This document shows positions 2,716 through 46,687 of a DNA stretch of 64,000 nt, piece after piece. Every line of letters starts with the position of its first letter. The first letter of the stretch is position 1. Source of the DNA: Dehalococcoidia bacterium (GTDB lineage Bacteria > Chloroflexota > Dehalococcoidia > Lucifugimonadales > UBA3495); contig OZ245439.1 in NCBI GenBank assembly GCA_965226875.1, forward strand, positions 711,081-775,080, given 5' to 3'. The position numbers and the translations under genes were made by a program. Under the pieces are notes generated by a model. That model was not told where the DNA came from, ran no database searches, and was given only the letters and a program-made list of their open reading frames with translations.

Positions 2716-4173
2716 CTTTACGCATAATTTAGAAAAATCATAAAGACAGGGTAAGCTGGCCTGACCCCACTTCTCACGAAAGGTCCAGCCATGCTCGCCC
2801 TGCCGATGCCATTGTAGCCGTTCTCGTTCCCTTCGCGACGCTGTTTAGCAGCCCGACTTGGCGGAAAGCCCAGGGGTTGCTGGTCGGCGCGATACTGACC
2901 CCGGGCCAACGCACGGTTACCGCGGCGCTCCGCGTCATGGGACGCAGCGACCAACGGGACTACGCCCGCTACCATGAGGTGCTCAACCGGGCGGTGTGGT
3001 CGCCCCGTGCGGCGGCCCGCATCCTGCTGTCGCTGCTGCTCCAGCACCTGGACCGCGGCGACGGCCCGTTGGTCTTCGGCATCGACGAGACCTTGGACCG
3101 GCGTCGCGGTCCCAAGATCAAGGCTCGGGGCGTCTACCGCGACGCGGTACGTTCCAGTCGCCAGCAACTGGTCAAGGCCAGCGGTCTACGCTGGGTCTCC
3201 CTGATGTGGCTGGGTCACATACCCTTGGCCGGTCGCCATTGGGCCTTGCCCTTTCTCACCGTGCTGGCACCCTCGGAACGCTACTACCGCCAGCAGGGGC
3301 GCCGCCACAAAAAGCTCACCGACTGGGCGCGGCAGATGATCTTGCAACTGCGCCGCTGGCTGCCCCATCGGTCCCTGGTGCTGGTGGGCGACAACAGCTA
3401 TGCCGTGCTGGACCTGATCCACTGCTGCCAGTCTCTAGCCCAGCCGGTTACTCTCATCGCCAGATTGCGTTTGGAGCCGCCCTGTACGCGCCAGCGCCAC
3501 CCCGTCAGCCGGGTCAGAACGGCCGCCCGCCGCTGAAAGGCGCGCGGCGACCCCCGCTCAAAGCCCTGCTTGAAGCCCTGCTTGAACCGGTCAACGTGGC
3601 TTGGGCCAGTGCCGTGGTGGCCTGGTATGACGGCACCACCCGCGCGGTGGAACTCACCTCCCAAACAGCGGTCTGGTACCGCTCGGGCAAGCCCCCCGTG
3701 CTCATTCGCTGGGTGCTGATTCGAGATCCCCAGGGCGTCTTCGCCCCGCAGGCCCTGCTCTGTACCGATCCGTCGGCGGACCCAACGCAGATCCTGGAGT
3801 GGTTTGTGCTGCGCTGGCAACTGGAGGTCACCTCCCGGGAGGTGCGGGCTCACCCGGGCGTGGAGACCCAGCGCCAGTGGTCGGATCGAGCCATTGCCCG
3901 TACTACGCCAATCCTGATGGGGCTCTTCTCTTGGACCACCCTGGCAGCCCAGCTTCTGCGGCAACAACGACCCTCGGCCCATCGCACAGCGGCTTGGTAC
4001 GACAAGCCGTCGCCGACCTTCGTGGACGCCATCGCCCTGGTGCGCCGCCACCTGTGGCTGGCGTCGGAGGGTTTTTCACTGTCCGCCGCCAACCCCGATA
4101 CGCAGGAACTCCCAGTCGCTCTGTACCACCGACTCGTAGATTCCCTTGCTTATGCCGCTTGAAATGCGTAAAG
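2716..4173 (+). mobile_element. IS701/IS4-like insertion sequence
   Basis: Terminal inverted repeats CTTTACGCAT (2716-2725) and ATGCGTAAAG (4164-4173) bracket one DDE-transposase-like reading frame. Confidence 0.75.
2791..4162 (+). pseudogene. IS701/IS4-like transposase with at least two frameshifts
   Basis: ATG 2791 (MLALPMPL) hits TAG. The frame shifts to ...VPFATLFSSPTWRKAQGLLVGAILTPGQRTV... (ORF 2877-3536), then shifts again near 3530 into ...WYDGTTRAVELTSQTAVWYRSGKPPVLIRWVLIRDP...LAYAA (to 4162). Confidence 0.8.
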
Positions 4174-4182
4174 CATCAATAC

Positions 4183-4594
4183 GCCCGCGTTTCGGGCCGT
4201 GCAGAGCCGACTAACTGGTGAGTCCGCCCCAGCGGTCACGGCGTGACATCTTAATTTAGTCGGGAGCATTGATATGCCCGTATCCGGCCCGTGCAGAGGC
4301 GACTAACTGGGTGAGTCCGCCCCAGCGGTCACGGCGTGACATCTTAAGTTAGTGGGGAGCATTGATATGCCCGTATCCGGCCCGTGCAGAGGCGACTAAC
4401 TGGGTGAGTCCGCCCCAGCGGTCACGGCGTGACATCTTAAGTTAGTGGGGAGCATTGTTATGCCCGTGCCCGGCCCGTGCAGAGGCGACTAACTGGTCAG
4501 TCCGCCCCCGCGGTCACGCCGTGACATCTCAAGTTAGTCCATAGCAGAGTTATGCCCCTATCCGGGCCGTGCAGAGGCGACTAACTGGTGAGTC
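4183..4594 (+). repeat. 93-bp tandem repeat array, left part (about 4.4 units)
   Basis: Units start at 4183, 4276, 4369, 4462 and 4554. Consensus: gcccgtatccggcccgtgcagaggcgactaactgggtgagtccgccccagcggtcacggcgtgacatcttaagttagtggggagcattgatat. Each unit holds the hairpin GTCAC-GGC-GTGAC nested in GACTAAC...GTTAGTC. Confidence 0.95.
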
Positions 4595-6212
4595 GGCCCA
4601 AGGATGTATGCTCATGGTAAGGCGCGTCGTCCGGACCAAGACCGAGCAGACTCTGGTGCCTATTGCCCGAACCGTAGCATGGTCAGGGAGCCTTACGACG
4701 GCATCATTGGTGACGCCCCGATCGGGGCGATCCCGTTGAGGAGAGTGGCTACGTTGCGTGGCTCCCTCCGGCGACACGTCTACCTTGTAGGCGTGGAGGG
4801 AATGATGAGCCACGGACGCCAGAGCAGCGCGAAACCGGCAGGGCTGTCCCAGCTGAACCTGAACGCGGCGGGCATTGACGTGGGGGCCACCAGCCACTTC
4901 GCGGCGGTTCCCGCCGACCGCGCGGAGCAGCCGGTGCAGGAGTTTGAGGCTTTCACGGCGGACCTATACCGTCTGGCGGACTGGCTGGCCGAGTGCGGTG
5001 TGGAGACCGTGGTCATGGAGTCCACCGGCGTGTACTGGATACCCCCTGTTCGGGGTGCTGGAAGAACGGGGCTTCCAGGTGATGCTGGTGGACCCCAGGC
5101 GCATCAAGAACGTGCCTGGTCGCAAGACCGACGTGCTGGACCTGCCAGTGGCTACAGCAGCAGCACACCTACGGCCTGCTGTCGGGGGCTTTCCGACCCG
5201 ACGGGGAGATCCGACGCTTACGCAGTTACCTGCGGCAGCGGGTCATGCTGGTGCAGTACGCATCCCACCATATCCAGCATATGCAGAAGGCGCTGACCCA
5301 GATGAACGTGAAGCTCCACCACGTCATCAGCGATATCACCGGCAAGACCGGCATGGACATCATGGAGGCAATCGTGGGTGGCCAACGGGACCCGCGACGA
5401 CTGGCGCAATTGCGCGACCCCAGGATCAAGGCCGACGAGGCGACCATCGCCAAGTCGCTGCAAGGCCACTGGCGGGAAGAGCACATCTTCGAGCTGACCC
5501 AGGCCCTGGAGCTGTACCGGTTCTATCAGGATAAGATTGCCGAGTGCGACAGGGAGATTGAAGCCCAGTTGGAGCGTTTCGAGGATCACAGCAATGGTGA
5601 TCCTCCAGCGGCGAAGTCCGGCCGGAGACGCAGCAAAGGAAACGCCCCACGCTTCGACGTTTGGACGCACCTGTACCGGATGACGGGGATTGACCTGACC
5701 CGGATCGACGGTGTGGATGCCTACACCGCGCTCAAGGTGGTGAGTGAGATTGGCACCGACATGACGAAATGGGCGAGTGCGAAGCACTTTGCGTCCTGGT
5801 TGGGGCTGAGCCCAAACAACCGCATCACCGGTGGGAGGGTGATCAGCTCCAAGACCAAACCCAGCGCCAACCGTGCGGCGGCGGCCTTGCGTCTGGCGGC
5901 CAACGCGCTGCACCGCTCCGACAGCGCCCTGGGCGCCTTCCTGCGCCGGAAGAAAGCGCAACTGGGAGCGCCCAAGGCCATCACCGCCACGGCCCACAAG
6001 CTGGCCAGGCTCATCTATTCCATGCTGCGCTACGGCCAGGAATACGTGGATGCCGGCGCTGAATACTACGAGAGCCAATATCAACAACGAGCCTTGCGTG
6101 CGGCACAACGTCGGGCGGCTCAACTGGGCTACCGGCTGGTGCCCATGCCCGATGCTCCGGAACACACCACCTACGCACCTCCTGGCGCGCCGATTGCCTC
6201 GTAACGACTGTG
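4595..6212 (+). mobile_element. IS110-family insertion sequence inside the 93-bp array
   Basis: Repeat unit 5 breaks after ...ctggtgagtc (4594). The array resumes at gttagtgaggagc (6213). The interval carries an IS110-type DEDD transposase gene preceded by about 200 bp of non-coding leader. Confidence 0.8.
4802..6204 (+). pseudogene. IS110-family transposase with two frameshifts
   Basis: MMSHGRQ...GIDVGATSHFAAV...VVMESTGVYWIP, shift near 5045 to LFGVLEERGFQVMLVDPRRIKNVPGRKTDVLD, shift near 5140 to CQWLQQQHTYGLLSGAFRP...MLVQYASHHIQHMQKAL...GLSPNNRITGGRV... Confidence 0.85.
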
Positions 6213-6411
6213 GTTAGTGAGGAGCAGAGTTATGCCCGTATCCGGCCCGTGCAGAGGCGACTAACTGGGTGAGTCCGCCCCAGCGGTCACGGCGTGACAT
6301 CTTAAGTTAGTCGGGAGCAGAGTTATGCCCGTATCCGGCCCGTGCAGAGGAGACTAACTGGGTGAGTCCGCCCCAGCGGCCACGGCGTGACAGATTAAGT
6401 TAGTGAGGAGG
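6213..6411 (+). repeat. 93-bp tandem repeat array, right part (about 2.2 units)
   Basis: Same unit as 4183-4594 (full units at 6234 and 6327). Ends against the truncated IS1380-family gene. Confidence 0.9.
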
Positions 6412-6853
6412 TCTCGCAGATGGTGGAGTCCAGGTCGATGGTCAGGGGCCCGTCGCCGGGTCCGGCCCCAGCCTCCCAGGCCCGGGCCAGCAACTGGCGG
6501 CTCACCCGGTCCAGTTGGCGGACATGGCCCCACCGGAAACTGCGCAGGAAGGTGCCCAAGGTGGAGGGCGCCTTGACTACACTGCCCAGGGTGCAGGCTG
6601 TCCCGCCGGTGCGCAACACATCGGCATCGTCGATGCAGTCGCCGCCCGCCAGCGCGGAAGCCACCAGCGTCATGATCTTGTCGCCGGTGTTGGCTCGGCC
6701 TGGGGCCCAGCCCAGGTCCAAGTGCCGGTCAACCAGTTGGGGCAGGCCCAGGTGCAAGGCCAACGCGGCGGGAAGGATCAGCCCGGCATTGTTGACCAGG
6801 CGGTGGTCGTCGAAGGCGATGTGGATGCCGTCGGGGTGGTTGCGTGGTAGCAT
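6395..6853 (-). pseudogene. IS1380-family transposase, N-terminal fragment
   Basis: ...HRLVNNAGLILPAALALHLGLPQLVDRHL...LVASALAGGDCIDDADVLR...APSTLGTFLRSFRWGHVRQLD matches the IS1380-family N-terminal region. The ORF runs into the 93-bp array after about 147 codons. The IS leader extends to about 6974. Confidence 0.7.
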
Positions 6854-6974
6854 CTATTGGGTGCTCCTTGTTTCTGGTTGGTTTTCTGTCTCGAAAACCA
6901 TTATCCCAGATGCACAGGAGCACTTTCTTACCCATTCAACCCGCCGCGACACTCATCCTTTCGGTGGATTCGGG

Positions 6975-7122
6975 CTAAAGCCAAGGTGAAATGTACATAT
7001 CGCTAGACCGCACTATCGGTGCCCTCCCAGTTGGGGCCTGAAGGTGATATGAGGTGCCGTGGAGTCCTTGCGGTCATCGTCAATCTCCCGGAAATGCACA
7101 TCCCACCTTGGTATTGGTTTAG
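6975..7122 (-). repeat. R155 element (TA-flanked TIR element), divergent interior
   Basis: CTAAAGCCAAGGTGAAATGTACAT...ATGCACATCCCACCTTGGTATTGGTTTAG. Termini match the R155 family; the left terminus lacks about 5 nt. Confidence 0.8.
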
Positions 7123-7206: not shown

Positions 7207-7734
7207 CTAGACGAACCAGCCCATGCCTTCCCAGTGGCCGCGCAGGAAGGCTATCTGGCCTCCGTGGACGATGTTGTCAAAGACCAGGACACCGATGATG
7301 GTCTCTTTCGGCTCGGGGTCCGAACCGGGCCTCAGGCTCATGGTGGCGCTCAACTCCTCGTCGGTCACGGAGGACATATAGTCCTGGCAGCAGGCCTTCA
7401 TGGCCTCGTAGTACCCTACCAGGACGTCTTTGGAGGGAAGCGGCCACGCGGCCACGCGCGCCGTGTCCCAGCCTTGGCCGGTCGTCTCCGGGTCGTCGCT
7501 CAGGCCGAATTTCTCGCACCAACCGTCCTCTATCCATATCTGAGGCTTGCCTTGGAACCTGGCATTCATGAAAACGTCCACCACCCGGCTCATGTGGAAG
7601 AGGAGCCACCCGATGGAATTGTCGCTGTCGGATATCTGGCGCGCCAGTGTCTCATCACTTAGCCCGTCTATGGCGCGGTCTACCATACCCCAGTTACGTT
7701 CCAGCGCATTTGATATCCCGGCGGAAACAGCCAT
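7207..7734 (-). CDS. DinB-family (DinB_2-like) protein
   Basis: 175 aa. Four-helix-bundle DinB pattern (WLLFHMSRVVD...VFDNIVHGGQIAFLRG). Assignment from motif memory only. Confidence 0.6.
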   Translation of the reverse strand: MAVSAGISNALERNWGMVDRAIDGLSDETLARQISDSDNSIGWLLFHMSRVVDVFMNARFQGKPQIWIEDGWCEKFGLSDDPETTGQGWDTARVAAWPLPSKDVLVGYYEAMKACCQDYMSSVTDEELSATMSLRPGSDPEPKETIIGVLVFDNIVHGGQIAFLRGHWEGMGWFV

Positions 7735-7890: not shown

Positions 7891-7922
7891 GAAATGTAGA
7901 TCCCACCGTGGCTTTAGTTTAG
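7891..7922 (-). repeat. Solo R155 terminus
   Basis: GAAATGTAGATCCCACCGTGGCTTTAGTTTAG equals one R155 end without a partner within 150 bp. Confidence 0.7.
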
Positions 7923-8043
7923 GGTCTCGCCGCCCTCGACATGTTCTTCATCGGCCTGCTAAGCCACAGTCCGGGCTGAAGCCCGTTTTGTCGGCTGCAC
8001 AAGGGCGGGCAACAGTCGAAAAGCCCGCACCGTTGAGGTCGTC

Positions 8044-8502
8044 CTACAGACGCTCCAGTAACTTTGCAATCTGATCGGTGTGGTTCATGTCGGGTTCCCA
8101 CTCGCAGATCACACTGTGTTCGTCGATGACAACTGCGGGCCTTTTCCCGTCTGACGGGTCTTTGACGTACCTCTCTCCATCGAGAGCGGACATGCCTAGC
8201 TCAATGCCTACTCGTCGATCAGGGTCGTTCAGGACCGCGAACGGAAGCTGCTCTTTCTCGATCCACTGGCGTGCAGCATCCAAGCTTCCGTCATGGATTC
8301 CGAACAGCACGACGTTCTTCTCGGTGAACTCGGCAGCATGCTCTCGGTACCCAAGAGCCATGCGGGTTCAGTTACCACCGCCCGGACTCGTGAAGAAGTA
8401 CAGCAGGACCTTTTGTCCGCGAAGACTGCTAAGGGATATCGTCTGTCCATCGCTGGACTGAAGTGTGAAATCGGAAATCGTCTTCCCGATGTAAGTTTCC
8501 AT
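8044..8502 (-). CDS. BCP/PrxQ-type peroxiredoxin with in-frame TGA (candidate selenocysteine) at the peroxidatic-Cys position
   Basis: ATG 8502 (GGAAAGGA upstream): METYIGKTISDFTLQSSDGQTISLSSLRGQKVLLYFFTSPGGGN-TGA(8370-8368)-TRMALGYREHAAEF...LNDPDRRVG. Aligns to E. coli BCP [20 protein letters not shown] with the TGA opposite Cys. May instead be a nonsense pseudogene. Confidence 0.6.
8336..8363 (-). promoter_or_regulatory. SECIS-like hairpin 4 nt downstream of the in-frame UGA
   Basis: mRNA GCAUG(G)CUCUUGG-GUA-CCGAGAGCAUGC: 12 pairs, one bulged G, apical loop about 17 nt from the UGA. Confidence 0.45.
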
Positions 8503-8712
8503 CATTGCCGTCCTTTCCGGTGAGACTTAATAGAACCGACGCACGCATGGCAGAACCGTTCCCCATGCAGTTGCTGGGCTGCACGGAGTCTAGGCGTTTC
8601 TCACCGCCGATGCACGCCTAGCTGCGCACGTCCGTTCGGGCGGCGAAGTGAGTAGCGCATCCTCTTGCGCCAGGACGTCTGTAGGTCCCAGGCGCCCAGC
8701 CGGGCCGCGCCC

Positions 8713-8958
8713 CTACCTGAGCATCGTCGTGTAGCGAGTGAAATCAACCGGCGCGAGGCCAGATTGCGAGCGCAGACGCGTCAGGAATCGCAGGATCTCC
8801 CGCCGTAGGGCGACGCCTTCGCGCGCGAGTCCACGAAGGTAGAGGCCGCCTGCAGCGGGGTCACCCGTTGCAATCTCCACGCCTGAATCGTCTACGGAGT
8901 ACTTGTTGGGTCCGCTTGGTCCACCGGCGACGCTGTTTGACATTATAGGGGCGCTCAT
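8713..8958 (-). CDS. Hypothetical protein (81 aa), possibly a gene fragment
   Basis: ORF only; no recognisable family. The start codon lies inside the 8943-8976 palindrome. Confidence 0.25.
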   Translation of the reverse strand: MSAPIMSNSVAGGPSGPNKYSVDDSGVEIATGDPAAGGLYLRGLAREGVALRREILRFLTRLRSQSGLAPVDFTRYTTMLR

Positions 8959-9063: not shown

Positions 9064-9657
9064 ATGCAGTACCTGCCCTCACGGGAAGCCGCCAAGATAT
9101 TGGGCCTCCATCCTCACACCCTCCGACGATACGCCGACGCCGGAATCATCCCCTCCATCAAAACCCAGAGCGGACAACGACGATATGACGTCCAAACCTA
9201 CCTCGGTAACTCCAAACCCAGCTCCACCGTCTGCTATTGCCGGGTCTCCAGCCACAAACAGACCGGCGACCTTCAACGTCAGGTCGCTTTCATGCAGCAA
9301 CACTATCCCGACGCCGAGGTAATCACCGATGTCGCCTCAGGACTCAACTACCGGCGGAAAGGACTTGCGTCCCTACTGGAGCGACTTCATCGCGGAGATA
9401 AACTCACACTTGTGGTTGCCTACCGGGACCGCCTCGCCCGCTTCGGCACCGAGCTCATCGAGCAGATGCTCCAGCAAAACGGTGGCGAACTCCTGGTTCT
9501 CAACCAGCGAGATCTCAGCCCCCCAGAGGAACTCACCCAGGATCTACTCGCCATCCTTACTGTCTTCTCTGCCAGAGCCAACGGACTCCGCAGGTACCGG
9601 AAGGAAATCCAAGAGGATAAGAATCTACCCAGACCGGCAGCAGAAAGCCAAGCTTAA
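9064..9657 (+). CDS. tnpA: IS607-type serine recombinase TnpA (MerR-like HTH plus resolvase catalytic domain)
   Basis: 197 aa: LPSREAAKILGLHPHTLRRYADAGIIP (HTH), VCYCRVSSHKQ (catalytic Ser), VVAYRDRLARFG. Confidence 0.9.
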   Translation: MQYLPSREAAKILGLHPHTLRRYADAGIIPSIKTQSGQRRYDVQTYLGNSKPSSTVCYCRVSSHKQTGDLQRQVAFMQQHYPDAEVITDVASGLNYRRKGLASLLERLHRGDKLTLVVAYRDRLARFGTELIEQMLQQNGGELLVLNQRDLSPPEELTQDLLAILTVFSARANGLRRYRKEIQEDKNLPRPAAESQA

Positions 9658-10767
9658 ACTCTGGTTCGACGCCGCCCGGTTCACCTACAACCGCACCATC
9701 GAACTCCTCAACTCGGACGGAGCCCCAAAAGCCTCCTGGCTCGGGGTCAAGAAGGACATCCTATCCAGTCTCCCCGAATGGACCAAGCCCGCTCCCTATG
9801 AGGTGAAGAGCAACGCCGTCCGAGAGGCCTGCCTGGCGGTCAGCGCGGTCAAGAAATTCAACCGGGAACTTGCCGCCGACCAAGGCAAGGGCATCAGAAA
9901 AGAGCAGACCTATGCGAGAGCACGTTTCCGCTCCCGGAAGAATCCCAGCCAGACCATTTTCATCCACGCATCCGCCCTCAGCCACCGGGGCGTCTATCAC
10001 ACCCTCCTGGGACCACTGAAAAAGAGGGAACCAATACCCCACGCCCACGGGGACGCCAAGCTGACACTGAGGCACCACCAGTACCACCTCAGCGTCCCCT
10101 TCAAAAGAATGGGACCCCACCTGGGTGAGAGCAATCTGCAGCCGAAGGCACCAGACCAAGTCAAAGTGGTTGCCCTCGACCCGGGAGTGAGAAACTTCAT
10201 CGCATGGTTCTCCGAAGACGGCTGCGGAAAGCTGGGAGAAAACGATTTCGGACGAATCCAGAGGCTGTGCCAGCACCAGGACAACCTGTTGTCCCGTGCT
10301 ACGCAGGCGCCGTCAGGAAAACGGCGCAACATGCGCAGGGCCGCCGAAAGAATGACCGTCAGGATTCAGAACCTGATAAATGAGCTCCACCACAAGACCG
10401 CCCGGTACCTCGTGGATAACTTCGACGTCATCCTCCTGCCCGCCTTCAAATCATCCGAAGTCGTGATCAGGGGACATCGCAAGATCAGATCAAAGACCGT
10501 CCGCAACCTGCTCAACTACGCCCATCACCGGTTCAGGAACTTCCTCCAGCACAAGGCTGCCGAAAACGGCAGGACCGTGCTGGTGGTCAACGAGGCCTAC
10601 ACCTCGAAGACCGTGAGCTGGACCGGAGAAATAATCCATAACCTGGGCGGACGCAAAACGGTCAGATCCTCCGATGGACAGAGGATGGACCGGGACATCA
10701 ACGGCGCACGGGGGACTTTCCTTCGTGCTTTGGGAGATACCCCCTTCCTGAGACAACACGTCTCTGG
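9329..10767 (+). pseudogene. tnpB: TnpB (IS607 type), C-terminally truncated; ORF reads through into unrelated DNA
   Basis: Same protein as 44885-46354 up to ...FLRQHVSG. The 676-aa ORF 9329-11359 is a read-through artefact running antisense to the MFS gene. Confidence 0.85.
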
Positions 10768-10795: not shown

Positions 10796-12000
10796 TCAGC
10801 CGGTGTTCACCCGCAACTGCCTGGCAAACACGGCCATAAGCAGCACGCTGCCGGTCGTGAGAGCGAGACACAGGTAGCCGATTCCCTCGTAGCCCACGCT
10901 GGCCAGAAGAGCGCCGGAGAGCCCGGCCCCAAGCACTCCGCCCACGAAGTTGCCGACACCGATAGTGCTGGCTCCCGTAGCCTTGGATTCTCCGGAATAC
11001 TCCGTCGTGGCAGCGACCATCACTGGCGCCAGGACGCTCAACAAGCCCGATCCCGCCGTTGCCAGGGCCACCGCAGGCCAGAGCCCGAAATCGACGGAGA
11101 AGAAGAGGAATACACAGACACCCCCTGCGGCCGTGGTAATGGCCATCAGTGCGACTCGATAACTCCTCGTGGCCACGAATCCGGCGGCGTAGCTCCCTAT
11201 CACCTGGGCTGCCGCAGCAATCAGCAGCGGCAGGGCCACGAATCCCACGCTCAAATCGTAAGCCTGTATCAAATAGGCGGCGAAGAAGCTGATCAGACCC
11301 CAGTAGGCCAGCCGCTGGGTCACAATCACCGTCAGGGCGACCCGAAAAAAACTCATTGAAAGCAGCGACCAATACCTGGCAAAGAATATGAACTGGCGAC
11401 TGCGTTCCCTGCTGTCCCGGGGATACCAGACCACGCTTAAGAGTAACGCCGTTGCCAGCAACAAACTCGCCAGTACAAAAGTGAACCGCCAGCCCCACAA
11501 GTCCGCGAACAGGGCCACCAGCGGGACGGTGATGGCCGAGGGGTCAACACGACTGTTCCCATAATGCCGCCGACGGCCTGGGCCCTCCTGGCGGGGGAAA
11601 TGATGTCGGACACCACCCCCACCGATGTGGGCGGTATGGTTCCTCCTCCCAATCCGCCCAGCACTCTGAGCGCGAGGAACACCTCGATGTTGGGCGCGAA
11701 GGCCGACCCTAGCACTGAGACCAGGACCATCAGCACCCCTGCGAGAGTCACCGGGCGGCGGCCGAAGGAATCGGCCAGCGGCCCCACGGCGACTATGGAA
11801 ACCGCCAATGCCGCGAAGGACGCCGTATTCAATTGCCCTGAGACTGCCACTGAAACGTCAAGGTCGGTTGCAATCTCAACCAGGAGCGCCGGAACCATCA
11901 CAATCGCGGTTTGGGTGCTTAGAATGGTGAGGGAGAGTACGAAGTAGAACCAGGCCTTGTTTACCTCTTTGCCCTCTGTCTGCGCCGCTTGGGTGGTCAT
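10796..12000 (-). pseudogene. MFS transporter, frameshifted (paralog 1)
   Basis: ORFs 11437-12000 and 10796-11518 together align along the whole length of the intact paralog 12057-13259. The frame breaks near 11540. Confidence 0.8.
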
Positions 12001-14676: not shown

Positions 14677-16323
14677 CTAACCGACGTTAACAACGCCGGT
14701 TGCGATGCACGCTGATTGCATCAGCGAGGGGGTATCTCCCAAAGCCCGCAGGAATATCCCACGGGCACCGTTGATGTCGCGTTCGACGCGGAAGCCGTCT
14801 GAGCTCTGGATCCAGCGTTGGCCTCCGAGCTTGGCGATTATCTCCCCGTTCCAGCTGCAGGTTTTGCTGGTATATGCTTCGTTGACCAGCAGCACCTGTT
14901 TGCCCGTCTCCCCGGCCTTCCACAGTAGGAACTGCTGGAATCGGTAGTGGGCGAAGGTCATCATGGAGCGTACGCTCTTGCTGCGGATCTTTCTCTTCCC
15001 CCGTTGCACCATGTCGCTGGTTTCGAATGTTGGCAGGAGGATGAGGTCGAAGTTGTCGACCAGGAAGCGTGCGGCCTGGTGGTGAAGCTCGTTGATGAGG
15101 TTCGTTATGCGAACTCTCATGCGGTCCGCGGCCTTCCGCAGGTTGCGCTTTCGGCGGGCTCCGGCCTTGGCCGTCCTGCTGATGAGCTGGTCTAGGTGGT
15201 GGCACAGGCGTTGGATTCTTCCGAAGTCGTGCTTGCCGATCTGGCCGGCGTCGGTTTCCGAAAACCAGGTGAGGAAGGTGCGTATGCCGGGGTCGAGTGC
15301 GACGACGCGTGCTTGGGTCTCGCTTTTGCGCCGTTCCGCCTTGAAGGTTACCGCTAGGTGGTACTGGCCGTTGTGCAGGGTCAGCCGGCAGTCTTGGTGA
15401 CCGTCGGGCAGTTGCTCGGCCATACGGAGGTTTCCCAGGATGGTGCAATAGGCGCCGCGGTCGGTTGTTGCCCTTCTTGGTATGTAGCATCCCTGCTTGG
15501 GGTGCTTGCGGCTGCGGAAGCCGACCTCGGCGTAGGGTTCACCCAGCCGTTCTCCTTGTGCCTTGGCCTTGGCCAGTTCCCTGTTGGCCTTCTTGCAGCG
15601 GGTGACCGCTCGGCAGGCGTCGCGCACTGCGATGCTCTTGACCTGGTAGGGGGCTGCCCTCAGCCTTTCCGGCGCGGAGTGGATGATCGTCGTTTTGATG
15701 CTCTTCCAGTTGGCGACGGTGCCGGGTTTACGGAGGTGGGCGACGGTTTCGTTGTAGCACCACCGTGCGGCGTCAAACCAGAGTTTCAGTACCGGTTTCT
15801 GGATCGCTGTGGGATAGAGTCGTATCCTTCTCGATTTGGTTTCGGTAACGGCGGAGTCCGTGGAGCCGGCAACTGAAGGTATGGAGGATGGCGAGAATAT
15901 CCTCGGTGAGTTCCTGCTGGGGGCTGTGATCCGTGTTGTCCAGAACCAGGATCTCGCCGCCGTTCTGCTCGGCCATCCACTGGATGAGTTCAAAGCCGAA
16001 CCTGGCGAGGCGGTCTCTGTGGGCAACCACAATCTGGAGCTTATCTCCGCGATGGAGTCGTTCCAGTAGGGAGACAAGTCCCTTCCTTTGGAAGTTGAGC
16101 CCGCCTCCGACGTCGGTGACGATATTTGCGTCAGGGAACCGTTCCTGCATGAACTGGACCTGTCTTTGCAGGTCGTCTTTTTGCTGGTGGGAGCTGACGC
16201 GGCAGTAGCAGACTGTTTCTGCTTCCTGGTTGTTTTCCTGGTTGCCTTGGAGATAGGAGTCGACGTCATAGAGGCGCTGTCCGGCGGCGTTTCGGTAGTG
16301 GGGGATTTTGCCCTTGTTGGCAT
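14677..16323 (-). CDS. tnpB: TnpB (IS607 type B); true start unresolved
   Basis: RIRLYPTAIQKPVLKLWFDAARWCYN..., VALDPGIRTF, LILLPTFETSDMV, VNEAYTSKTCSWNG...ERDINGARGIF. The ORF is open for about 180 codons upstream of the conserved N-terminus, across tnpA. Confidence 0.8.
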   Translation of the reverse strand: MPTRAKSPTTETPPDSASMTSTPISKATRKTTRKQKQSATAASAPTSKKTTCKDRSSSCRNGSLTQISSPTSEAGSTSKGRDLSPYWNDSIAEISSRLWLPTETASPGSALNSSSGWPSRTAARSWFWTTRITAPSRNSPRIFSPSSIPSVAGSTDSAVTETKSRRIRLYPTAIQKPVLKLWFDAARWCYNETVAHLRKPGTVANWKSIKTTIIHSAPERLRAAPYQVKSIAVRDACRAVTRCKKANRELAKAKAQGERLGEPYAEVGFRSRKHPKQGCYIPRRATTDRGAYCTILGNLRMAEQLPDGHQDCRLTLHNGQYHLAVTFKAERRKSETQARVVALDPGIRTFLTWFSETDAGQIGKHDFGRIQRLCHHLDQLISRTAKAGARRKRNLRKAADRMRVRITNLINELHHQAARFLVDNFDLILLPTFETSDMVQRGKRKIRSKSVRSMMTFAHYRFQQFLLWKAGETGKQVLLVNEAYTSKTCSWNGEIIAKLGGQRWIQSSDGFRVERDINGARGIFLRALGDTPSLMQSACIATGVVNVG

Positions 16324-16390
16324 AGGACCTCAGGGTATTGGGGTGCAGCCCGAGGATTGCGGCTGCCTTCCGGCTTGGGAGGTGGGCCAT
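15773..16390 (-). CDS. tnpA: IS607-type serine recombinase TnpA (type B)
   Basis: 205 aa: LPSRKAAAILGLHPNTLRSYANKGKIP, VCYCRVSSHQQ, VVAHRDRLARFG. Confidence 0.9.
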   Translation of the reverse strand: MAHLPSRKAAAILGLHPNTLRSYANKGKIPHYRNAAGQRLYDVDSYLQGNQENNQEAETVCYCRVSSHQQKDDLQRQVQFMQERFPDANIVTDVGGGLNFQRKGLVSLLERLHRGDKLQIVVAHRDRLARFGFELIQWMAEQNGGEILVLDNTDHSPQQELTEDILAILHTFSCRLHGLRRYRNQIEKDTTLSHSDPETGTETLV

Positions 16391-18295: not shown

Positions 18296-19525
18296 TAGAC
18301 CACCATCATTGAAACGATGGCTGGTAAAATGTGAGAGGATGGCAGCCAAAGGAAAAATGTTGGGAAGTGGGGGTGGATGTGATGGTGAAGAAATACCGTG
18401 TGGCGCTGGCTGAGGAGGAGCAACAGGAACTGAAGGGGCTGGTGGGCCGGGGGCGGGCGGCAGCTTACCGGCAGACCCACGCCCGCATCCTGCTGCTCTG
18501 CGATGAGAACCAGGCCAACGGGTCCATGAAGGACGAGGAGATAGCCCGGGCCCTCAAGGTGGGAACCGCCACGGTGGAACGGGTGCGCCGCCGCTGTGTG
18601 GAGGAGAGTCTGGAGAGGTCCCTGGGACGCAAGGAGCAGCTTAACCGCCGCCCCAAGAAGCTGGACGGCCATGATGAAGCCCAGTTGATTGCCTTGGCCT
18701 GCTCCCAACCTCCGGAGGGCCGGGCCTCCTGGACGCTGCAACTGCTGGCGGATCGGCTGGTGGAATGCGAGATAGTGGACAGCATCAGCACCGAAACCGT
18801 GCGCCAGACACTGAAAAAAACGAACTCAAGCCTTGGCTGAAAGAGTGCTGGTGCATCCCGCCACAGGGCAACGCCGAGTTCGTCTGCGCCATGGAGGACG
18901 TGCTGGAGGTCTACCACCGTCAATTCGGGGACAACGAGGTGCTGGTGTGCCTGGACGAAACCAGCAAACAGCTGGTGAAGGAGACCCGCCAGCCCCTCCC
19001 GCCGCAGCCCAGGGCTGCCATGGCGTACGATTATGAATACCAGCGCAACGGAGTGAGCAACCGGTTCATGCTATTCGCCCCCTTGGAGGGGTGGCGGCGG
19101 GTGGAGGTCACCGAGCGACGCACCCGGACCGATTGGGCGCGAGTGGTACGGAAACTGGTGGATGAGGACTACCCCGACAAGGAGCGGATAGTGCTGGTGA
19201 TGGACAACTTGAACACCCATCATCCGGCTTCTCTGCACCAGGCTTTTGAGCCGGCCGAAGCGAGGCGTATCGCTGAACGGCTGGAGATTCATTACACGCC
19301 GAAGCACGGGAGTTGGCTCAATATGGCCGAGATCGAACTGGGAGTTCTGGCCCGGCAATGCCTGGACCGCCGGATTCCCGGGCAGGTAGTCCTGGAACAA
19401 GAGACCAAGGCGTGGCAGAACCAACGAAACCGTGACTCAATACGGGTGGACTGGCGCTTCACCACCAAGGACGCCCGCATCAAACTGAGGTCGCTATACC
19501 CATCACTCCAACGATGACAGACTAC
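18295..19525 (+). mobile_element. IS630-family element type A, copy 1 (1231 bp)
   Basis: Ends GTAGACCACCATCATTGAAACGATGG / CCATCACTCCAACGATGACAGACTAC (imperfect IR), flanked by TA (18293-94, 19526-27). Near-identical copies at 22170-23400 and 27680-28910. Confidence 0.9.
18331..19517 (+). CDS. IS630-family transposase, two frames joined by -1 frameshift at A7 (18814-18820)
   Basis: ORF1 ...VRQTLKK ends 18840. ORF2 continues KKNELKPWLKECWCIPP...DNLNTHH...GSWLNMAEIELGVL. The slippery run is conserved in all A and B copies. Confidence 0.85.
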
Positions 19526-22170: not shown

Positions 22171-23400
22171 TAGTCTGTCATCGTTGGAGTGATGGGTATA
22201 GCGACCTCAGTTTGATGCGGGCGTCCTTGGTGGTGAAGCGCCAGTCCACCCGTATTGAGTCACGGTTTCGTTGGTTCTGCCACGCCTTGGTCTCTTGTTC
22301 CAGGACTACCTGCCCGGGAATCCGGCGGTCCAGGCATTGCCGGGCCAGAACTCCCAGTTCGATCTCGGCCATATTGAGCCAACTCCCGTGCTTCGGCGTG
22401 TAATGAATCTCCAGCCGTTCAGCGATACGCCTCGCTTCGGCCGGCTCAAAAGCCTGGTGCAGAGAAGCCGGATGATGGGTGTTCAAGTTGTCCATCACCA
22501 GCACTATCCGCTCCTTGTCGGGGTAGTCCTCATCCACCAGTTTCCGTACCACTCGCGCCCAATCGGTCCGGGTGCGTCGCTCGGTGACCTCCACCCGCCG
22601 CCACCCCTCCAAGGGGGCGAATAGCATGAACCGGTTGCTCACTCCGTTGCGCTGGTATTCATAATCGTACGCCATGGCAGCCCTGGGCTGCGGCGGGAGG
22701 GGCTGGCGGGTCTCCTTCACCAGCTGTTTGCTGGTTTCGTCCAGGCACACCAGCACCTCGTTGTCCCCGAATTGACGGTGGTAGACCTCCAGCACGTCCT
22801 CCATGGCGCAGACGAACTCGGCGTTGCCCTGTGGCGGGATGCACCAGCACTCTTTCAGCCAAGGCTTGAGTTCGTTTTTTTCAGTGTCTGGCGCACGGTT
22901 TCGGTGCTGATGCTGTCCACTATCTCGCATTCCACCAGCCGATCCGCCAGCAGTTGCAGCGTCCAGGAGGCCCGGCCCTCCGGAGGTTGGGAGCAGGCCA
23001 AGGCAATCAACTGGGCTTCATCATGGCCGTCCAGCTTCTTGGGGCGGCGGTTAAGCTGCTCCTTGCGTCCCAGGGACCTCTCCAGACTCTCCTCCACACA
23101 GCGGCGGCGCACCCGTTCCACCGTGGCGGTTCCCACCTTGAGGGCCCGGGCTATCTCCTCGTCCTTCATGGACCCGTTGGCCTGGTTCTCATCGCAGAGC
23201 AGCAGGATGCGGGCGTGGGTCTGCCGGTAAGCTGCCGCCCGCCCCCGGCCCACCAGCCCCTTCAGTTCCTGTTGCTCCTCCTCAGCCAGCGCCACACGGT
23301 ATTTCTTCACCATCACATCCACCCCCACTTCCCAACATTTTTCCTTTGGCTGCCATCCTCTCACATTTTACCAGCCATCGTTTCAATGATGGTGGTCTAC
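22170..23400 (-). mobile_element. IS630-family element type A, copy 2
   Basis: Reverse complement of copy 1; same 1231-bp length; TA flanks. Confidence 0.9.
22178..23364 (-). CDS. IS630-A transposase (two frames, -1 frameshift)
   Basis: ORFs 22855-23364 and 22178-22930 translate identically to copy 1. Confidence 0.85.
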
Positions 23401-27680: not shown

Positions 27681-28910
27681 TAGACCACCATCATTGAAAC
27701 GATGGCTGGTAAAATGTGAGAGGATGGCAGCCAAAGGAAAAATGTTGGGAAGTGGGGGTGGATGTGATGGTGAAGAAATACCGTGTGGCGCTGGCTGAGG
27801 AGGAGCAACAGGAACTGAAGGGGCTGGTGGGCCGGGGGCGGGCGGCAGCTTACCGGCAGACCCACGCCCGCATCCTGCTGCTCTGCGATGAGAACCAGGC
27901 CAACGGGTCCATGAAGGACGAGGAGATAGCCCGGGCCCTCAAGGTGGGAACCGCCACGGTGGAACGGGTGCGCCGCCGCTGTGTGGAGGAGAGTCTGGAG
28001 AGGTCCCTGGGACGCAAGGAGCAGCTTAACCGCCGCCCCAAGAAGCTGGACGGCCATGATGAAGCCCAGTTGATTGCCTTGGCCTGCTCCCAACCTCCGG
28101 AGGGCCGGGCCTCCTGGACGCTGCAACTGCTGGCGGATCGGCTGGTGGAATGCGAGATAGTGGACAGCATCAGCACCGAAACCGTGCGCCAGACACTGAA
28201 AAAAACGAACTCAAGCCTTGGCTGAAAGAGTGCTGGTGCATCCCGCCACAGGGCAACGCCGAGTTCGTCTGCGCCATGGAGGACGTGCTGGAGGTCTACC
28301 GCCGTCAATTCGGGGACAACGAGGTGCTGGTGTGCCTGGACGAAACCAGCAAACAGCTGGTGAAGGAGACCCGCCAGCCCCTCCCGCCGCAGCCCAGGGC
28401 TGCCATGGCGTACGATTATGAATACCAGCGCAACGGAGTGAGCAACCGGTTCATGCTATTCGCCCCCTTGGAGGGGTGGCGGCGGGTGGAGGTCACCGAG
28501 CGACGCACCCGGACCGATTGGGCGCGAGTGGTACGGAAACTGGTGGATGAGGACTACCCCGACAAGGAGCGGATAGTGCTGGTGATGGACAACTTGAACA
28601 CCCATCATCCGGCTTCTCTGCACCAGGCTTTTGAGCCGGCCGAAGCGAGGCGTATCGCTGAACGGCTGGAGATTCATTACACGCCGAAGCACGGGAGTTG
28701 GCTCAATATGGCCGAGATCGAACTGGGAGTTCTGGCCCGGCAATGCCTGGACCGCCGGATTCCCGGGCAGGTAGTCCTGGAACAAGAGACCAAGGCGTGG
28801 CAGAACCAACGAAACCGTGACTCAATACGGGTGGACTGGCGCTTCACCACCAAGGACGCCCGCATCAAACTGAGGTCGCTATACCCATCACTCCAACGAT
28901 GACAGACTAC
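27680..28910 (+). mobile_element. IS630-family element type A, copy 3
   Basis: 1231 bp, TA flanks; one amino-acid difference (YRRQF vs YHRQF) from copies 1 and 2. Confidence 0.9.
27716..28902 (+). CDS. IS630-A transposase (two frames, -1 frameshift)
   Basis: ORFs 27716-28225 and 28150-28902. Confidence 0.85.
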
Positions 28911-36197: not shown

Positions 36198-37822
36198 ATG
36201 GTACGTCGCAGCAAAGTTCCCCCAGCATCCGCCGGTTTGAATCCGTCTCAGGGCCCGCTGGTCAGCACCTATCAGACCAGGATCGCTGACTTCGGCGACA
36301 TGGACCGTGCGGTGGGTTATTCGGCATTAGCCGCTTACGCGCAGCTCTACGGCCGGGTGGAGCGGAAACTGTTTGCGGACTTTTCAGCTGGTGAGGCACC
36401 TGCGTCTCTGAAGAAGGAGTACCTGGAGCGATACGGGATACCGGCGAGGATGTTCAACGGCCTGCGGGTTTCGCTGGAGGGCCAGGTGTCGGCCGTCCAG
36501 AAAACTATGGGGCTGAGGTTGGATAACCTTCAGCGTCGGATCGCCCGGGCTGAGCTTGAGATTGCCAAGGCTGTTGAGCGTGGACGCTTGAATCAGGTGC
36601 ATCAGAAGCGGCGCCGGCTGGCAAATCTGAGATTCAGGTTGGCTGTGCTGGAAGCCGATGTCGCCGCAGGCCGGGTCAGGCTGTGTTTCGGCTCGAAGCG
36701 GTTGTGGCGGAAGCAGCATGACCTTGAGGTCAATGGTTACGGCAACCATGAGGAATGGCTGAGTGATTGGCGGGACGCCCGTAGCGACGAGTTTTCACAC
36801 TGGGGAGCAGGGATGAAACCACTGGTTGCCAATTATGCGTCGCCACGATAGCTGAGGACGGGTGCCTCAACCTCCGGGTCAGGATGCCCGATGCCCTGGC
36901 AGAGCAGCATGGGAAATACCTGTTGATCCAGAATGTCTGGTTTGCCTATGGGCATGAGCAGGTACTGGCTGCGTTGCAGAGCAATACTGAGTACACTCGG
37001 TATCGGCGGCAACATGGTGAAAAGGCGGCGCGTTCCACAAAACTGGGGCAGGCCATCAGCTACCGCTTCAAGCGGGATGGCAGGGGATGGCGGGTGTTCG
37101 TGAGCACCAATATGATGGGCGTGCCGGTTGTAACGGACCGACGGCGTGGAGCAATCGGCGTCGATTTGAACGCCGATCATCTGGCGGTCGCGGAGACCGA
37201 TGCCTCGGGGAACTGGTTGAACGCTTGGCGGGTGCCGTTGGTGACCTATGGCAAGAGCGCTCATCAGGCTGAGGCTCTGATCGGCGACGCCGTGGCCTGG
37301 GTGGTCGAGTACGCCCGTGATGCTGGCAAGCCCATCGTTATCGAGAAGCTGGACTTTCGTCAGAAGAAGGCTGTCTTGGAAGGTGATAACCAGAGGTACT
37401 CCCGGATGCTTTCCAGTTTCAGCTATGGGAAAGTCAAGGCGTACTTCATCTCCCGCGGTTATCGTCAGGGAGTGGTAATTCATCAGGTCAACCCGGCCTA
37501 CAGTTCAGTGATGGGCCGGGTCAAGTTCATGGAACGATATGGGCTCAGTGTCCATCAGGCGGCTGCCCTGGTGCTGGCCCGTCGTTTACTTGGTTGCTCA
37601 GAGCGCATTCCACGCCTTCGGGTTGCACCCGTTGGCAATGGCGTCCATGTCGCCTTCACCGTACCTGTAAGGAAGCGAGTGAAGCACGTGTGGGCGTGCT
37701 GGGGTGCGATCTCTCGGCAGCTGAAACCGGCGCTTGCAGCGCAATCCCGGCTGGAGAGGCAGAGACGCAGATCCAATCCGGCTCAGGCTGGTTCGCAGGT
37801 TCAGGCCTGCGGAAGGGCTTGA
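36198..37822 (+). pseudogene. TnpB/OrfB-like RuvC-fold protein lacking zinc ribbon, frameshifted near 36790
   Basis: ...LVSTYQTRI...; frame switch at GAGTTTTCAC. Second frame: FTLGSRDETTGCQLCVATIAEDGCLNLRVRMPDAL...AIGVDLNADHLAV...PIVIEKLDF...VNPAYSSVMGRVKF...SVHQAAALVLARR. Confidence 0.65.
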
Positions 37823-38320
37823 GTGGGGACCAGTTCGGTGTTTCCGGGTGCGATTCCCGGTCGGAGCCGTCTTGAACTGTTGGGGCGGCGAATGGTGGGT
37901 TTTCTTGGTCGTTGCGACCAAAGTCAACCTTTTTTACAACGGTTCCATCACATGGTTATCAGACGAAATGATCCTGTAATAAGCCATGGCTCGGCTCTCC
38001 GAATGCAGTCTTTGGTGATTTCCAACCTAGCGCCAAATTACAGTGGGCTTTAGGCGCCAACACCCACCCGAACGGCCTGCGAGGCTTGCCTCCGGGCGAT
38101 TCAGGATTGACGAATTGCGGCGATTATGGCCGGGGCTTGAAACGAAGTCAAACCGCAAAGAGGGGCCTTCTCAAGCTATCACTGCCAAAGAGATGAGGAA
38201 GACTTGCTTTTGCCGGAACGTCCATCCAGGCCTATACTTCCGGGCTTTGAGGGTGCCCGGGCGGCCATGAAACACATCGTTAGCCTGTTTCCGCTCACCT
38301 TTCTCCGGTCCCGAGCTCGA

Positions 38321-42116: not shown

Positions 42117-42378
42117 CTAGCCACCACAAGATTCACGCGATTCGCAAAATTGCAATGATGGAATTATGCTTTTCATAGTGGTAAATTCTTGTATGCAAAT
42201 TTCGTCCCATAACGCTAAAATGTGGCACCTTCCCGTTAATCGTTCAAACTGCTGCGGACATACCAAGCTTCCGCATGAAACCGAGCTTCAATCTCAGCGG
42301 CCTGCAAGTAGAATCCGGACACCTCCATTGGAACCATAGGCACTACAAATATATACGGCAGATGAAAAGGGGTTCGCC

Positions 42379-43365
42379 ATGTCCACCTTGCAAACCAACA
42401 CGGCTTACCGGATGGGGGAGCGCTACGGCCGGCACCCGGACGACGGCAAGTATCCCGGAACTCTGATTATCGTAGAGGGCATAGACGGCTCGGGCAAAAG
42501 CACTCAGATTGACCTGCTTCAGAAATGGCTCAACAGTCGCAACCTGGTAACGGTATTCACCCAGTGGAATTCATCTCCCATTGTCCGGCGCACCACCAAG
42601 CAAGCAAAGGTGGAGGGACTGCTCACTCCGATGTCCTTCAGCCTCATTCACGCCGCCGATTTCACCAACCGGGTTCACGCGCAGATACTGCCGGCCCTTT
42701 GGGCCGGGGCCATTGTTCTGGCCGACCGCTATGTTTACACCGCCTTCGCCCGTGATGCGGCGCGGGGCGTAAATCGCGACTGGCTGCGGCGTATCTATTC
42801 CTTCGCAGTGGAGCCGACGCTGGCCCTGTACTTCAAAGTCCCATTGGACGTGTCCATTCACCGTATTAGGTTCTGTTGACATTTGCATTTGTAACCGATG
42901 TGCAGGCCCATTTCATGTCATTCCAAGTGCAGGAAAGCACTAATGGCCTTGAATCGGAGTGATAAGTCCAGGATTCTTCGTCGCTATTTCCCTGGAATGA
43001 CCCGCAACAGCGAAATGTCAACAGAACCTAATACCGGCCGCGAGAAACTGGGGTTCTACGAATCGGGGCAGGATATGGGCTTCTCCACCGACCGGGAAGA
43101 ATCTTTCCGCATCTTCCAGGGCAAGCTGTTGGAAGAGTACGAGGCCATGACGGAAGAATTCGGCATGATGACCATTGACGCCACGCAGCCAATTGCCGTG
43201 CAACAACAATTGTTACGCCGCTACGTTGAGCCGCTCATCGAAAATGCGATGCCGATACACGGGCAAAGCGTGCCGGAGGCATTGGGCAACGCTGGCCTGA
43301 CCGGACGCTACGTAAAACCGCCGGTTCCGCGCAGACTGACAGAGCAGGACATCGCCGGCCGGTAG
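42379..43365 (+). pseudogene. Thymidylate-kinase-like P-loop protein 1, interrupted by a 160-bp MITE
   Basis: LIIVEGIDGSGKSTQ (P-loop), LADRYVYT. Removing 42869-43030 restores ...VSIHRINTGREKLGFYESG... (274 aa). Confidence 0.75.
42869..43028. mobile_element. 160-bp MITE derived from IS5-family element type b
   Basis: TIRs GGTTCTGTTGACATTT / AAATGTCAACAGAACC with TA flanks. Same ends as the 809-bp IS at 61122-61930. Second copy 59044-59203. Confidence 0.85.
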
Positions 43366-43410
43366 GCCACGGCCGCGTTTTGCCGGGCCAACGGTATTGG
43401 GAGTCAAACG

Positions 43411-46354: not shown

Positions 46355-46619
46355 CGGTGATTACCTCGGCGTCGGGATAGTGTTGCTGCATGAAAGCGAC
46401 CTGGCGTTGGAGATCGCCGGTCTGTTTGTGGCTGGAGACCCGGCAATAGCAGACGGTGGAGCTGGGTTTGGAGTTACCGAGGTAGGTTTGGACGTCATAT
46501 CGTCGTTGTCCGCTCTGGGTTTTGATGGAGGGGATGATTCCGGCGTCGGCGTATCGTCGGAGGGTGTGAGGATGGAGGCCCAATATCTTGGCGGCTTCCC
46601 GTGAGGGCAGGTACTGCAT
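46026..46619 (-). CDS. tnpA: IS607-type serine recombinase TnpA (type A)
   Basis: Identical translation to 9064-9657. Confidence 0.9.
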   Translation of the reverse strand: MQYLPSREAAKILGLHPHTLRRYADAGIIPSIKTQSGQRRYDVQTYLGNSKPSSTVCYCRVSSHKQTGDLQRQVAFMQQHYPDAEVITDVASGLNYRRKGLASLLERLHRGDKLTLVVAYRDRLARFGTELIEQMLQQNGGELLVLNQRDLSPPEELTQDLLAILTVFSARANGLRRYRKEIQEDKNLPRPAAESQA

Positions 46620-46687
46620 GTGATGATTATAATGGTTGTTGCGTGCTTATCACCATTATAGGCTACTGCAGTTTACGGTTCCCTCGT

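Follow-up and report, generated by a model that had tools for sequence, protein, structure and literature searches.

Peroxiredoxins (Prxs) in which selenocysteine (Sec, U) occupies the active site are established, with the motif PxxxTxxU, and Prx-like selenoprotein subfamilies carrying the motifs UxxC, UGC, UxxS, and CxxU have also been described (PMC2398784; PMC13188914). An example of a Sec-containing Prx (Sec-Prx) is PrxU of Eubacterium acidaminophilum (Sohling et al. 2001, as listed in PMC13188914), while the Prx-like selenoproteins are marine and found mainly in metagenomes (PMC2398784, PMC13188914). Here we analyze a gene on the reverse strand of a 64,000-nucleotide stretch of a Dehalococcoidia bacterium (contig OZ245439.1, positions 711,081 to 775,080; hereafter the window), in which a single in-frame TGA falls at the active-site position of a PrxQ/BCP-like protein. 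We put the probability that this is a genuine selenoprotein gene at about 0.93.

A sequence-only reading of the window had described the gene as a candidate Sec-containing, BCP-type peroxiredoxin. This description is supported by the conservation of the TGA codon, by a covarying RNA hairpin, and by alignment of the codon to the peroxidatic Cys (Cp) of known peroxiredoxins; the peroxidase chemistry is inferred. The gene encodes a Sec-containing protein of the Prx family, a known kind that is currently misannotated, and it reveals no new kind of system.

Reading frame and conservation of the TGA codon

The gene and its translation signals are as follows.

8044..8505, reverse strand: complete coding sequence of the Sec-containing PrxQ/BCP-like protein (translation, Pfam, and homolog lengths of 152–153 residues)
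8511..8518, reverse strand: Shine-Dalgarno-like sequence GGAAAGGA, 5' of the start codons (read directly; equivalent AAGGAGG or GGAGG in divergent homologs)
8368..8370, reverse strand: UGA codon 45 (numbered from the ATG at 8502), predicted to be read as Sec, at the peroxidatic-Cys position (homolog codons and profile alignment)

Translation of the reverse strand from 8502 to 8044 yields a 152-residue protein that reads METYIGKTISDFTLQSSDGQTISLSSLRGQKVLLYFFTSPGGGN, then a single internal stop (TGA, 8370–8368), then TRMALGYRE...LLERL, and ends at a terminal TAG (8046–8044). This translation confirms that the frame opened by the ATG at 8502 runs through one TGA into the open reading frame (ORF) at 8044–8361. 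The ATG at 8502, which had been taken as the start, stands as a possible one; a second ATG adjoins it at 8505, and comparison with homologs permits either, with 152 codons counted from 8502 and the family-typical 153 from 8505. A strong Shine-Dalgarno sequence (AAGGAGG, GGAGG) and an ATG are found about 45 codons 5' of the TGA in every lineage. Many of the window genes with Pfam support (e.g., MFS transporter, Tex, DDE_3) end at TGA in the normal way, so the genetic code is standard.

To place the TGA codon in its family, we compared it with two sets of relatives. A protein search listed 120 relatives, to which all counts on database proteins refer. The DNA sample comprised 80 loci from species-representative genomes, all of them Dehalococcoidia/SAR202/Chloroflexota metagenome-assembled genomes (MAGs), and 58 further loci from metagenomes (sponge, deep ocean, soil), with a few from exact look-ups. 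At the Sec site, 125 of the 132 motif-bearing copies have TGA and 7 have TGC (Cys), across protein identities of 44–99%, and Cys is the only sense codon observed there. The seven TGC copies represent four distinct Cys sequences (L062, L081, L092, and L112), and Cys-form database proteins include P0012, P0014, and P0017–20. Among the genome loci, TGA is present in 77/77 motif-matched copies and in 79/80 after L062, L078, and L080 were inspected by eye; L080, at 44% protein identity, is the most distant TGA copy. The question raised by the sequence-only reading, whether homologs carry Cys or TGA at this codon, is thus answered by a classic Sec/Cys pair.

The frame around the TGA is otherwise intact. 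No other stop occurs in 134/136 copies over the 40 codons before and the 107 codons after the TGA, and the window copy shows none of the further disabling mutations that had been named as a sign of decay. In comparisons with the window copy, pN (nonsynonymous divergence) is much below pS (synonymous divergence) in both the 40 upstream and the 107 downstream codons, with synonymous sites saturated in distant pairs; for L059, the pN/pS values are 0.105/0.80 upstream and 0.158/0.66 downstream. Both halves of the gene are therefore under purifying selection. From the conserved Shine-Dalgarno sequence and ATG, the intact frame, and the low pN, it follows that the 44 codons before the TGA are translated in the same frame as the remainder. 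The TGA itself has been kept as long as the family has existed. A few decaying copies were also encountered: L056 and L057 lack their 5' part, cut near codon 22 by an insertion sequence that ends ...THPFGGFG, the same end as that of an IS1380-like fragment in the window (~6400–6990), and L058 and L133 have frameshifts in the C-terminal half.

The same codon has shaped the public records, in which the protein appears as a 105-residue fragment, called "peroxiredoxin" wherever the source names it. Such 105-residue calls make up 85 of the 120 listed homologs, all starting at the Met three codons after the TGA, with the N-terminus MALGYR in 84 and MALGNR in 1. This uniformity is the pattern expected where the same TGA stops gene callers everywhere. 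Another 10 of the 120 are full-length (152–153 residues) and contain either Cys (GGNNCTRM) or a Trp or Arg from an alternative source translation. The Sec position is rendered as Arg in P0013 and as Trp in P0002, P0024, and P0030; the DNA underlying P0002 is TGA, so its Trp stems from a source that used another code. The present analysis corrects a systematic annotation error, in which the 85 homologs (clusters of ≤512 sequences) were stored as fragments lacking the catalytic residue.

The TGA form is what RNA libraries contain. The window sequence is present in four sponge metatranscriptome runs, in which single contigs span the gene and its flanks (X18 covers 8043–8828 at a depth of 344, contig depth being a poor measure of expression and DNA carry-over being possible in such libraries; X2 and X4 cover 7950–8900). 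These contigs show no variant at 8368–8370, and the only nearby difference, at 8371, is synonymous (AAC/AAT, Asn44).

The downstream hairpin and the decoding machinery

We examined the RNA immediately 3' of the UGA for a bacterial selenocysteine insertion sequence (bSECIS). The hairpin has the following parts.

8336..8363, reverse strand: putative bSECIS hairpin (minimum free energy (MFE), pairing conservation, compensatory changes, and frozen synonymous codons)
8363–8359 / 8340–8336, reverse strand: lower stem, five pairs
8358, reverse strand: bulged G
8357–8351 / 8347–8341, reverse strand: upper stem, 7 bp
8350–8348, reverse strand: apical loop GUA

The hairpin, GCAUG(G)CUCUUGG-GUA-CCGAGAGCAUGC, is present as the sequence-only reading had drawn it: the stem, of 12 pairs with one bulged G, starts 4 nt past the UGA, and 17 nt separate this codon from the 3-nt loop. 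The MFE of the 28 nt alone is −15.5 kcal/mol. Across all 65 distinct TGA forms, the 28-nt segment folds at −8.0 to −17.6 kcal/mol, and the apical loop is GUA in 62 of them. The same segment in the four Cys forms folds at −5.6 to −8.2 kcal/mol into different weak structures and not into the hairpin of the TGA forms.

Conservation of the pairing was assessed on the ungapped alignment, where 90% of cells are paired, as compared to 32–50% when the 3' arm is slid by 1–3 columns; the covariation score was reached by 0/500 shuffles. Compensatory changes, by which the hairpin was to be judged, are seen as double changes at three of the seven upper-stem pairs (C-G to G-C, U-A to A-U, and C-G to U-A), and G-U intermediates are numerous. 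The lower stem, of five pairs, is less tightly kept. In the stretch that forms the upper stem and loop, synonymous codons are frozen in the distinct TGA forms (n = 65), with GCT for Ala in 62/63, GGG for Gly in 62/65, and TAC for Tyr in 65/65, and the Thr and Arg codons directly before the stem codons vary through all synonyms. In the Cys forms, the same Gly is encoded by GGC (4/4) and the preceding residue by GGC or GCG. These patterns show that the hairpin is kept by selection, and only in the TGA forms.

The published bSECIS model specifies a loop of 3–9 nt, an upper stem of 4–16 bp, a UGA-to-loop distance of 16–37 nt, and an MFE of ≤ −7.5 kcal/mol, with a G within the first two loop positions that is usually followed by G or U (PMC13188914). 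The window hairpin agrees with the model on all four criteria (GUA loop, 7 + 5 bp, 17 nt, and −15.5 kcal/mol), as the sequence-only reading had anticipated when it placed the hairpin within the bacterial range, and G-U is found at loop positions 1–2 in 62/65 TGA forms.

Evidence that the UGA could be decoded comes from relatives and from the sampled communities. A TGA-form homolog 61% identical to the window protein, in a marine contig of the Dehalococcoidia MAG CB21_323.39 (L065), has a tRNA-Sec gene 800 bp downstream, called as SeC(TCA) by ARAGORN and matched by Rfam RF01852 with 73.1 bits (E = 1.7e-13). At this locus (3001–4757), the homolog is followed by msrB, the tRNA-Sec gene, and a thioredoxin gene, a small redox and selenium neighborhood that no other locus showed. 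SAR202 cluster bacterium bin87 (L034) and bin16 (L050) carry TGA orthologs that share 95% and 91% identity, respectively, with the window protein. For bins of these names, which we take to be the same ones, Table S4 of a published study gives SelA/SelB/SelD counts of 3/1/1 (bin87) and 1/1/1 (bin16), and most of the bins from sponge symbionts have SelA and SelB together (PMC5649159). Two Dehalococcoidia MAGs rank among the ten most selenoprotein-rich bacteria, with 46–49 selenoprotein genes, in a 2026 database paper, and the isolate name of one of them is of the same kind as those of MAGs carrying homologs here (PMC13326102). In addition, contigs that resemble the L065 tRNA-Sec beyond the generic T-arm turn up in those sponge DNA and RNA runs that also contain the window sequence, a weak signal that is not organism-specific. 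Taken together, these four lines provide good indirect evidence for Sec decoding, and the check on the Sec machinery that had been suggested earlier thus comes out positive in relatives; the sel genes are presumably present in this particular genome as well. A screen of the window for other Sec candidates, based on in-frame TGA and codon-position GC, returned mostly antisense noise.

Fold, active site, and competing explanations

With Cys placed at the stop, the window protein scores 78 bits with Pfam AhpC-TSA (PF00578; cut-off 26, E = 6.4e-22) and also matches Redoxin, at E = 1.5e-14. A profile built from the Cys forms finds solved PrxQ/BCP structures first, namely Sulfolobus tokodaii 2ywn/4g2e (E = 2e-18) and S. 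solfataricus Bcp1 (3drn) and Bcp4 (3hjp). In the ungapped alignment of FFTsaGGNN-C-TRM to FYPAAFTQV-C-TKE, the Cys/Sec column falls on the Cp of 2ywn/3drn, in agreement with the earlier placement of the TGA opposite the catalytic Cys of E. coli BCP. An AlphaFold (AF2) model of the natural Cys homolog P0014 (pLDDT 86, pTM 0.83) has Cys46 in the first turn of helix 44–55; Foldseek ranks Bcp1 3drn first for this model (TM 0.81) and also returns BCP and AhpE, with TM scores of 0.81–0.84 to Bcp1/BCP structures. One further active-site residue can be assigned.

8140..8142, reverse strand: codon of the conserved Prx-fold catalytic Arg, Arg121 (GKRPAVVID; invariant in the alignment, paired with the Arg of 2ywn "akRavfvid")

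In the Cys-form profile, the corresponding family motif is GRRPAVVID, with its Arg aligned to the catalytic Arg. No resolving Cys is conserved, as most relatives have Ala where the window protein has Cys134. The protein is thus a Prx-fold, Prx-position selenoprotein of its own subfamily.

We propose that translation starts at the ATG at 8505 or 8502 and proceeds to the UGA at 8370–8368. The hairpin 10 nt past this codon, consisting of a 17-nt upper stem-loop with GUA and a lower-stem extension, would act as a bacterial SECIS and recruit SelB-GTP-Sec-tRNA(Sec), whereupon Sec would be inserted and translation would continue to the TAG at 8044. The product would have 153 residues and a thioredoxin fold and would belong to the PrxQ/BCP branch within the AhpC/TSA family, with Sec in the first turn of helix α2, where peroxiredoxins carry the peroxidatic Cys. 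Its most likely chemistry would be a 1-Sec peroxidase or thiol-dependent reductase cycle, in which the selenolate is oxidized to the selenenic acid, an external thiol or thioredoxin then forms a selenenylsulfide with it, and the selenolate is regenerated. In this scheme, the actual insertion of selenium, the use of peroxide as the substrate, and the reductant are presumed. That the protein is a peroxidase in the strict sense seems to us slightly better than an even bet.

Several observations weigh against a Sec-containing peroxiredoxin. On the side of decoding, the hairpin of the single sequence exceeds chance by a small margin only (66-nt z = −1.96, 7/200 shuffles); its significance derives from its conservation and covariation in homologs and not from the single sequence. 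Rfam gives no match to the hairpin region at E ≤ 10, SECIS families included, and at gathering thresholds finds nothing in the 64-kb window. No selA, selB, selD, or tRNA-Sec was found in the window by Rfam, ARAGORN, and Pfam on 40 ORFs, and tblastn with E. coli SelD as a probe returned nothing in the window or the homolog loci. On the side of function, the PxxxT/SxxCp motif is altered: T-S-P-G-G-G-N-U aligns without gaps to P-A-A-F-T-Q-V-C, replacing Pro by Thr and Thr by Gly in all Sec and Cys members. The caveat of the sequence-only reading that the usual Thr is not conserved was therefore correct, and with both canonical residues replaced, peroxidase activity is not assured. The NCBIfam equivalog cut-offs are likewise missed (BCP NF006960, 62 bits vs 140; PrxQ NF053650, 44 vs 260). 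No curated selenoprotein NCBIfam model reaches its cut-off with the window protein; weak hidden Markov model (HMM) similarity to WAxxUGC_long (E = 2e-7) and SelL_rel_redox (E = 6e-5) lies far below the cut-offs.

The genome is rich in insertion sequences (ISs) and contains at least one probable TGA nonsense gene, which also counts against a Sec codon and lends some weight to a pseudogene, in which a TGC-to-TGA mutation would have inactivated a Cys-peroxiredoxin in a decaying genome. The nonsense gene is an Amidohydro_3 (D-aminoacylase-like) gene of ~548 codons at 62114–63763 on the reverse strand, with one in-frame TGA (62725–62723) and no frameshift. This TGA has no significant downstream hairpin (z = +0.78) and probably marks a true nonsense pseudogene, likely the "other TGA" to which the sequence-only reading had referred. 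Some copies of the Prx gene are themselves broken, whether by IS truncation (L056/L057) or by frameshift (L058/L133). Nevertheless, the pseudogene explanation, which the sequence-only reading had kept as a live alternative, is refuted by the data and is scarcely credible: the same TGA recurs in copies from sponge, marine, and soil sources over the full range of identities, both sides of it are under purifying selection with no scattered extra stops, and the RNA hairpin is maintained specifically in the TGA forms. An independent nonsense mutation could not be inherited over such depth with an intact ORF, and conservation of the TGA within an intact, selected frame excludes a nonsense pseudogene.

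A split gene would instead stop at the UGA and reinitiate at the ATG 6 nt later, giving a peptide of 44 residues and a protein of 105, which may reassemble, with no use of selenium. The position of that ATG (Met48, two codons past the UGA) and the 105-residue ORF annotated by gene callers fit this idea. However, Met48 is just as conserved in the stop-free Cys forms, marking it as a structural residue and not a restart signal, and the split product would lack the sole catalytic residue. The hairpin, with SECIS geometry, is found in UGA forms only, and Sec/Cys pairing in the active site is diagnostic of selenoproteins (PMC13188914); we regard a split gene as highly improbable. Reading of the UGA as Trp, Cys, Gly, or Ser, through a suppressor or allo-tRNA or through near-cognate decoding, is also very unlikely. 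The Trp translations in some source pipelines (P0002, P0024, and P0030) and odd long tRNAs called by ARAGORN could be taken to favor it. These calls are 93–95-nt "tRNA-Pro" genes (CGG/AGG) at 37776–37868 on the forward strand of the window and at 4426–4520 on the reverse strand of L076; as candidates for tRNA-Sec or an allo-tRNA they were rejected, having no Rfam tRNA support at E ≤ 1, and are most likely false positives. Against such a reading, TGA is an ordinary stop of many well-supported window genes, Cys is the sole sense codon at a site that structure-guided alignment identifies as the redox-active residue, and tRNA-Sec and sel genes exist in carrier genomes.

Genomic setting and comparison with known systems

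The window comes from a sponge Dehalococcoidia of the SAR202 type that is rich in ISs, and the window flanks are 94–99% identical to sponge SAR202-type MAGs. Within the sponge clade, 58 loci in 42 species-level genomes carry copies with 89–99% protein identity, at most three per genome. Two features lie downstream of the gene.

7207..7734, reverse strand: DinB_2/mycothiol-S-transferase-like gene (Pfam PF12867, E = 1e-13)
7900..7922, reverse strand: solo terminal inverted repeat of an IS630-type element or miniature inverted-repeat transposable element (MITE), a 23-mer with 13 copies in the window and 0 expected

The DinB_2 gene adjoins in 17 of the 58 close loci and in 0 divergent loci, and is thus a neighbor in the sponge clade only; at other close loci, IS1182-, IS1380-, or IS630-type elements abut the gene. 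A search for a conserved operon partner found none in the divergent marine and soil lineages, with msrB and trx beside the gene in one contig only. Homology between copies stops at ~7950–7920 on the 3' side, and the solo repeat lies at or just past this limit. An integron cassette or other discrete mobile cassette was considered and rejected because the homology limits are ragged (left 2883–2984, right 3459–3553, in locus coordinates) and the unit is not flanked by attC-like or terminal repeats. Instead, the gene is seen to have been repeatedly duplicated and rearranged among insertion sequences.

The 23-nt repeat, CTAAACTAAAGCCAAGGTGGGAT, occurs at 7900–7922, 18144, 19654, 20882, 21010, 22148, 23400, 23528, 28910, 29039, 33605, 40734, and 44358. 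It adjoins three identical IS630-type DDE_3 ORFs (18678–19517, 22178–23017, and 28063–28902), the first of which it brackets as an inverted pair; MITE-like inverted pairs of the repeat, spaced by ~150 bp, occur as well. In the sponge metatranscriptome contigs, the solo copy just downstream of the Prx gene reaches very high depth and is joined to many different flanks. Other mobile elements in the window include an IS110 transposase (5245–6204), the IS1380-like fragment (6395–6853), and an IS21 pair (rve + IstB, 47196–49478). Three TnpB (Cas12f-like TNB) ORFs lie in the regions 9064–10700 (forward), 14677–16329 (reverse), and 44885–46672 (reverse); the first, at 9329–10700, stands beside an IS607-type serine recombinase with a MerR helix-turn-helix (9064–9657). 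ORFs at 10796–12000 (reverse), next to this first unit, look like a frameshifted membrane transporter. Elsewhere, neighboring ORFs at 42340–42879 and 43366–44109 (forward) both match thymidylate kinase (PF02223), representing either a tandem duplication or two deoxynucleoside monophosphate kinase paralogs, and a nucleoside 2-deoxyribosyltransferase gene is found at 49825–50478.

Because the gene is multicopy, near-identical in ~42 species-level genomes, situated among insertion sequences, and well represented in metatranscriptomes, it may spread horizontally in the sponge holobiont. A broader proposal, that it represents an uncatalogued, Sec-dominant (~95% Sec) PrxQ-like subfamily and at the same time an antioxidant gene that spreads horizontally within the sponge holobiont, is possible if rather doubtful. 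If it is correct, TSPGGGN-U, lacking the peroxide-activating Thr and Pro, would suggest a Sec-enabled peroxidase variant or a different substrate. The absence of the canonical Thr from every member offers a natural test of whether selenium compensates for a lost activating residue in the peroxiredoxin mechanism. The selenoproteome of SAR202/Dehalococcoidia, a lineage abundant in the ocean and in sponges, gains a Sec-dominant PrxQ-like protein with a divergent active site.

The minimal SECIS of E. coli fdhF comprises a 17-nt upper stem-loop ~10–11 nt after the UGA, with an apical G-U and a bulged U. The hairpin described here shares the size and position of the upper stem-loop and the G-U in the apical loop, whereas its sequence differs, its bulge is a G on the 5' strand below the upper stem instead of a U, and its loop has 3 nt.

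With the Prx-like, Redoxin, and TlpA-like selenoproteins (GOS (Global Ocean Sampling) Prx-like 1–3, cd02970, WAxxUGC, and Prx-SUH), the protein shares the thioredoxin fold and weak HMM similarity. In contrast to the UxxC/UxxU, UGC, UxxS, and CxxU types, it has U-T-R-M, with neither Cys nor Ser in positions +2/+3, and position −3 lacks Cys as well. Its motif, G-x-x-U-T-R-M, fits no catalogued Prx-like selenoprotein subfamily and was not found in the literature searched or in the GOS supplements, which is absence of evidence only. The PrxQ/BCP proteins (3drn, 3hjp, 2ywn/4g2e, and E. coli BCP) are the best profile and structure matches and agree in length (~150 residues), in the Cp position, and in the catalytic Arg; the window protein differs from them in its identity of only 23–30%, in having Sec for Cys, in the absence of the motif Pro and Thr, and in falling below the NCBIfam cut-offs.

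Finally, the Sec-Prx proteins (PF00578, PxxxTxxU; e.g., PrxU) resemble the window protein in Pfam family, in having Sec at the peroxidatic position, in a SECIS directly after the UGA, and in the existence of Cys homologs. They differ in the motif (TSPGGGN-U in the window protein, where position −3 holds Gly for Thr and position −7 Thr for Pro), and in that the fold here is nearest to the PrxQ/BCP branch, with no conserved resolving Cys. The balance of forms also differs: Sec outnumbers Cys 125:7 in this family, whereas the Prx proteins of the GOS survey included ~30 times more Cys than Sec forms (PMC2398784).

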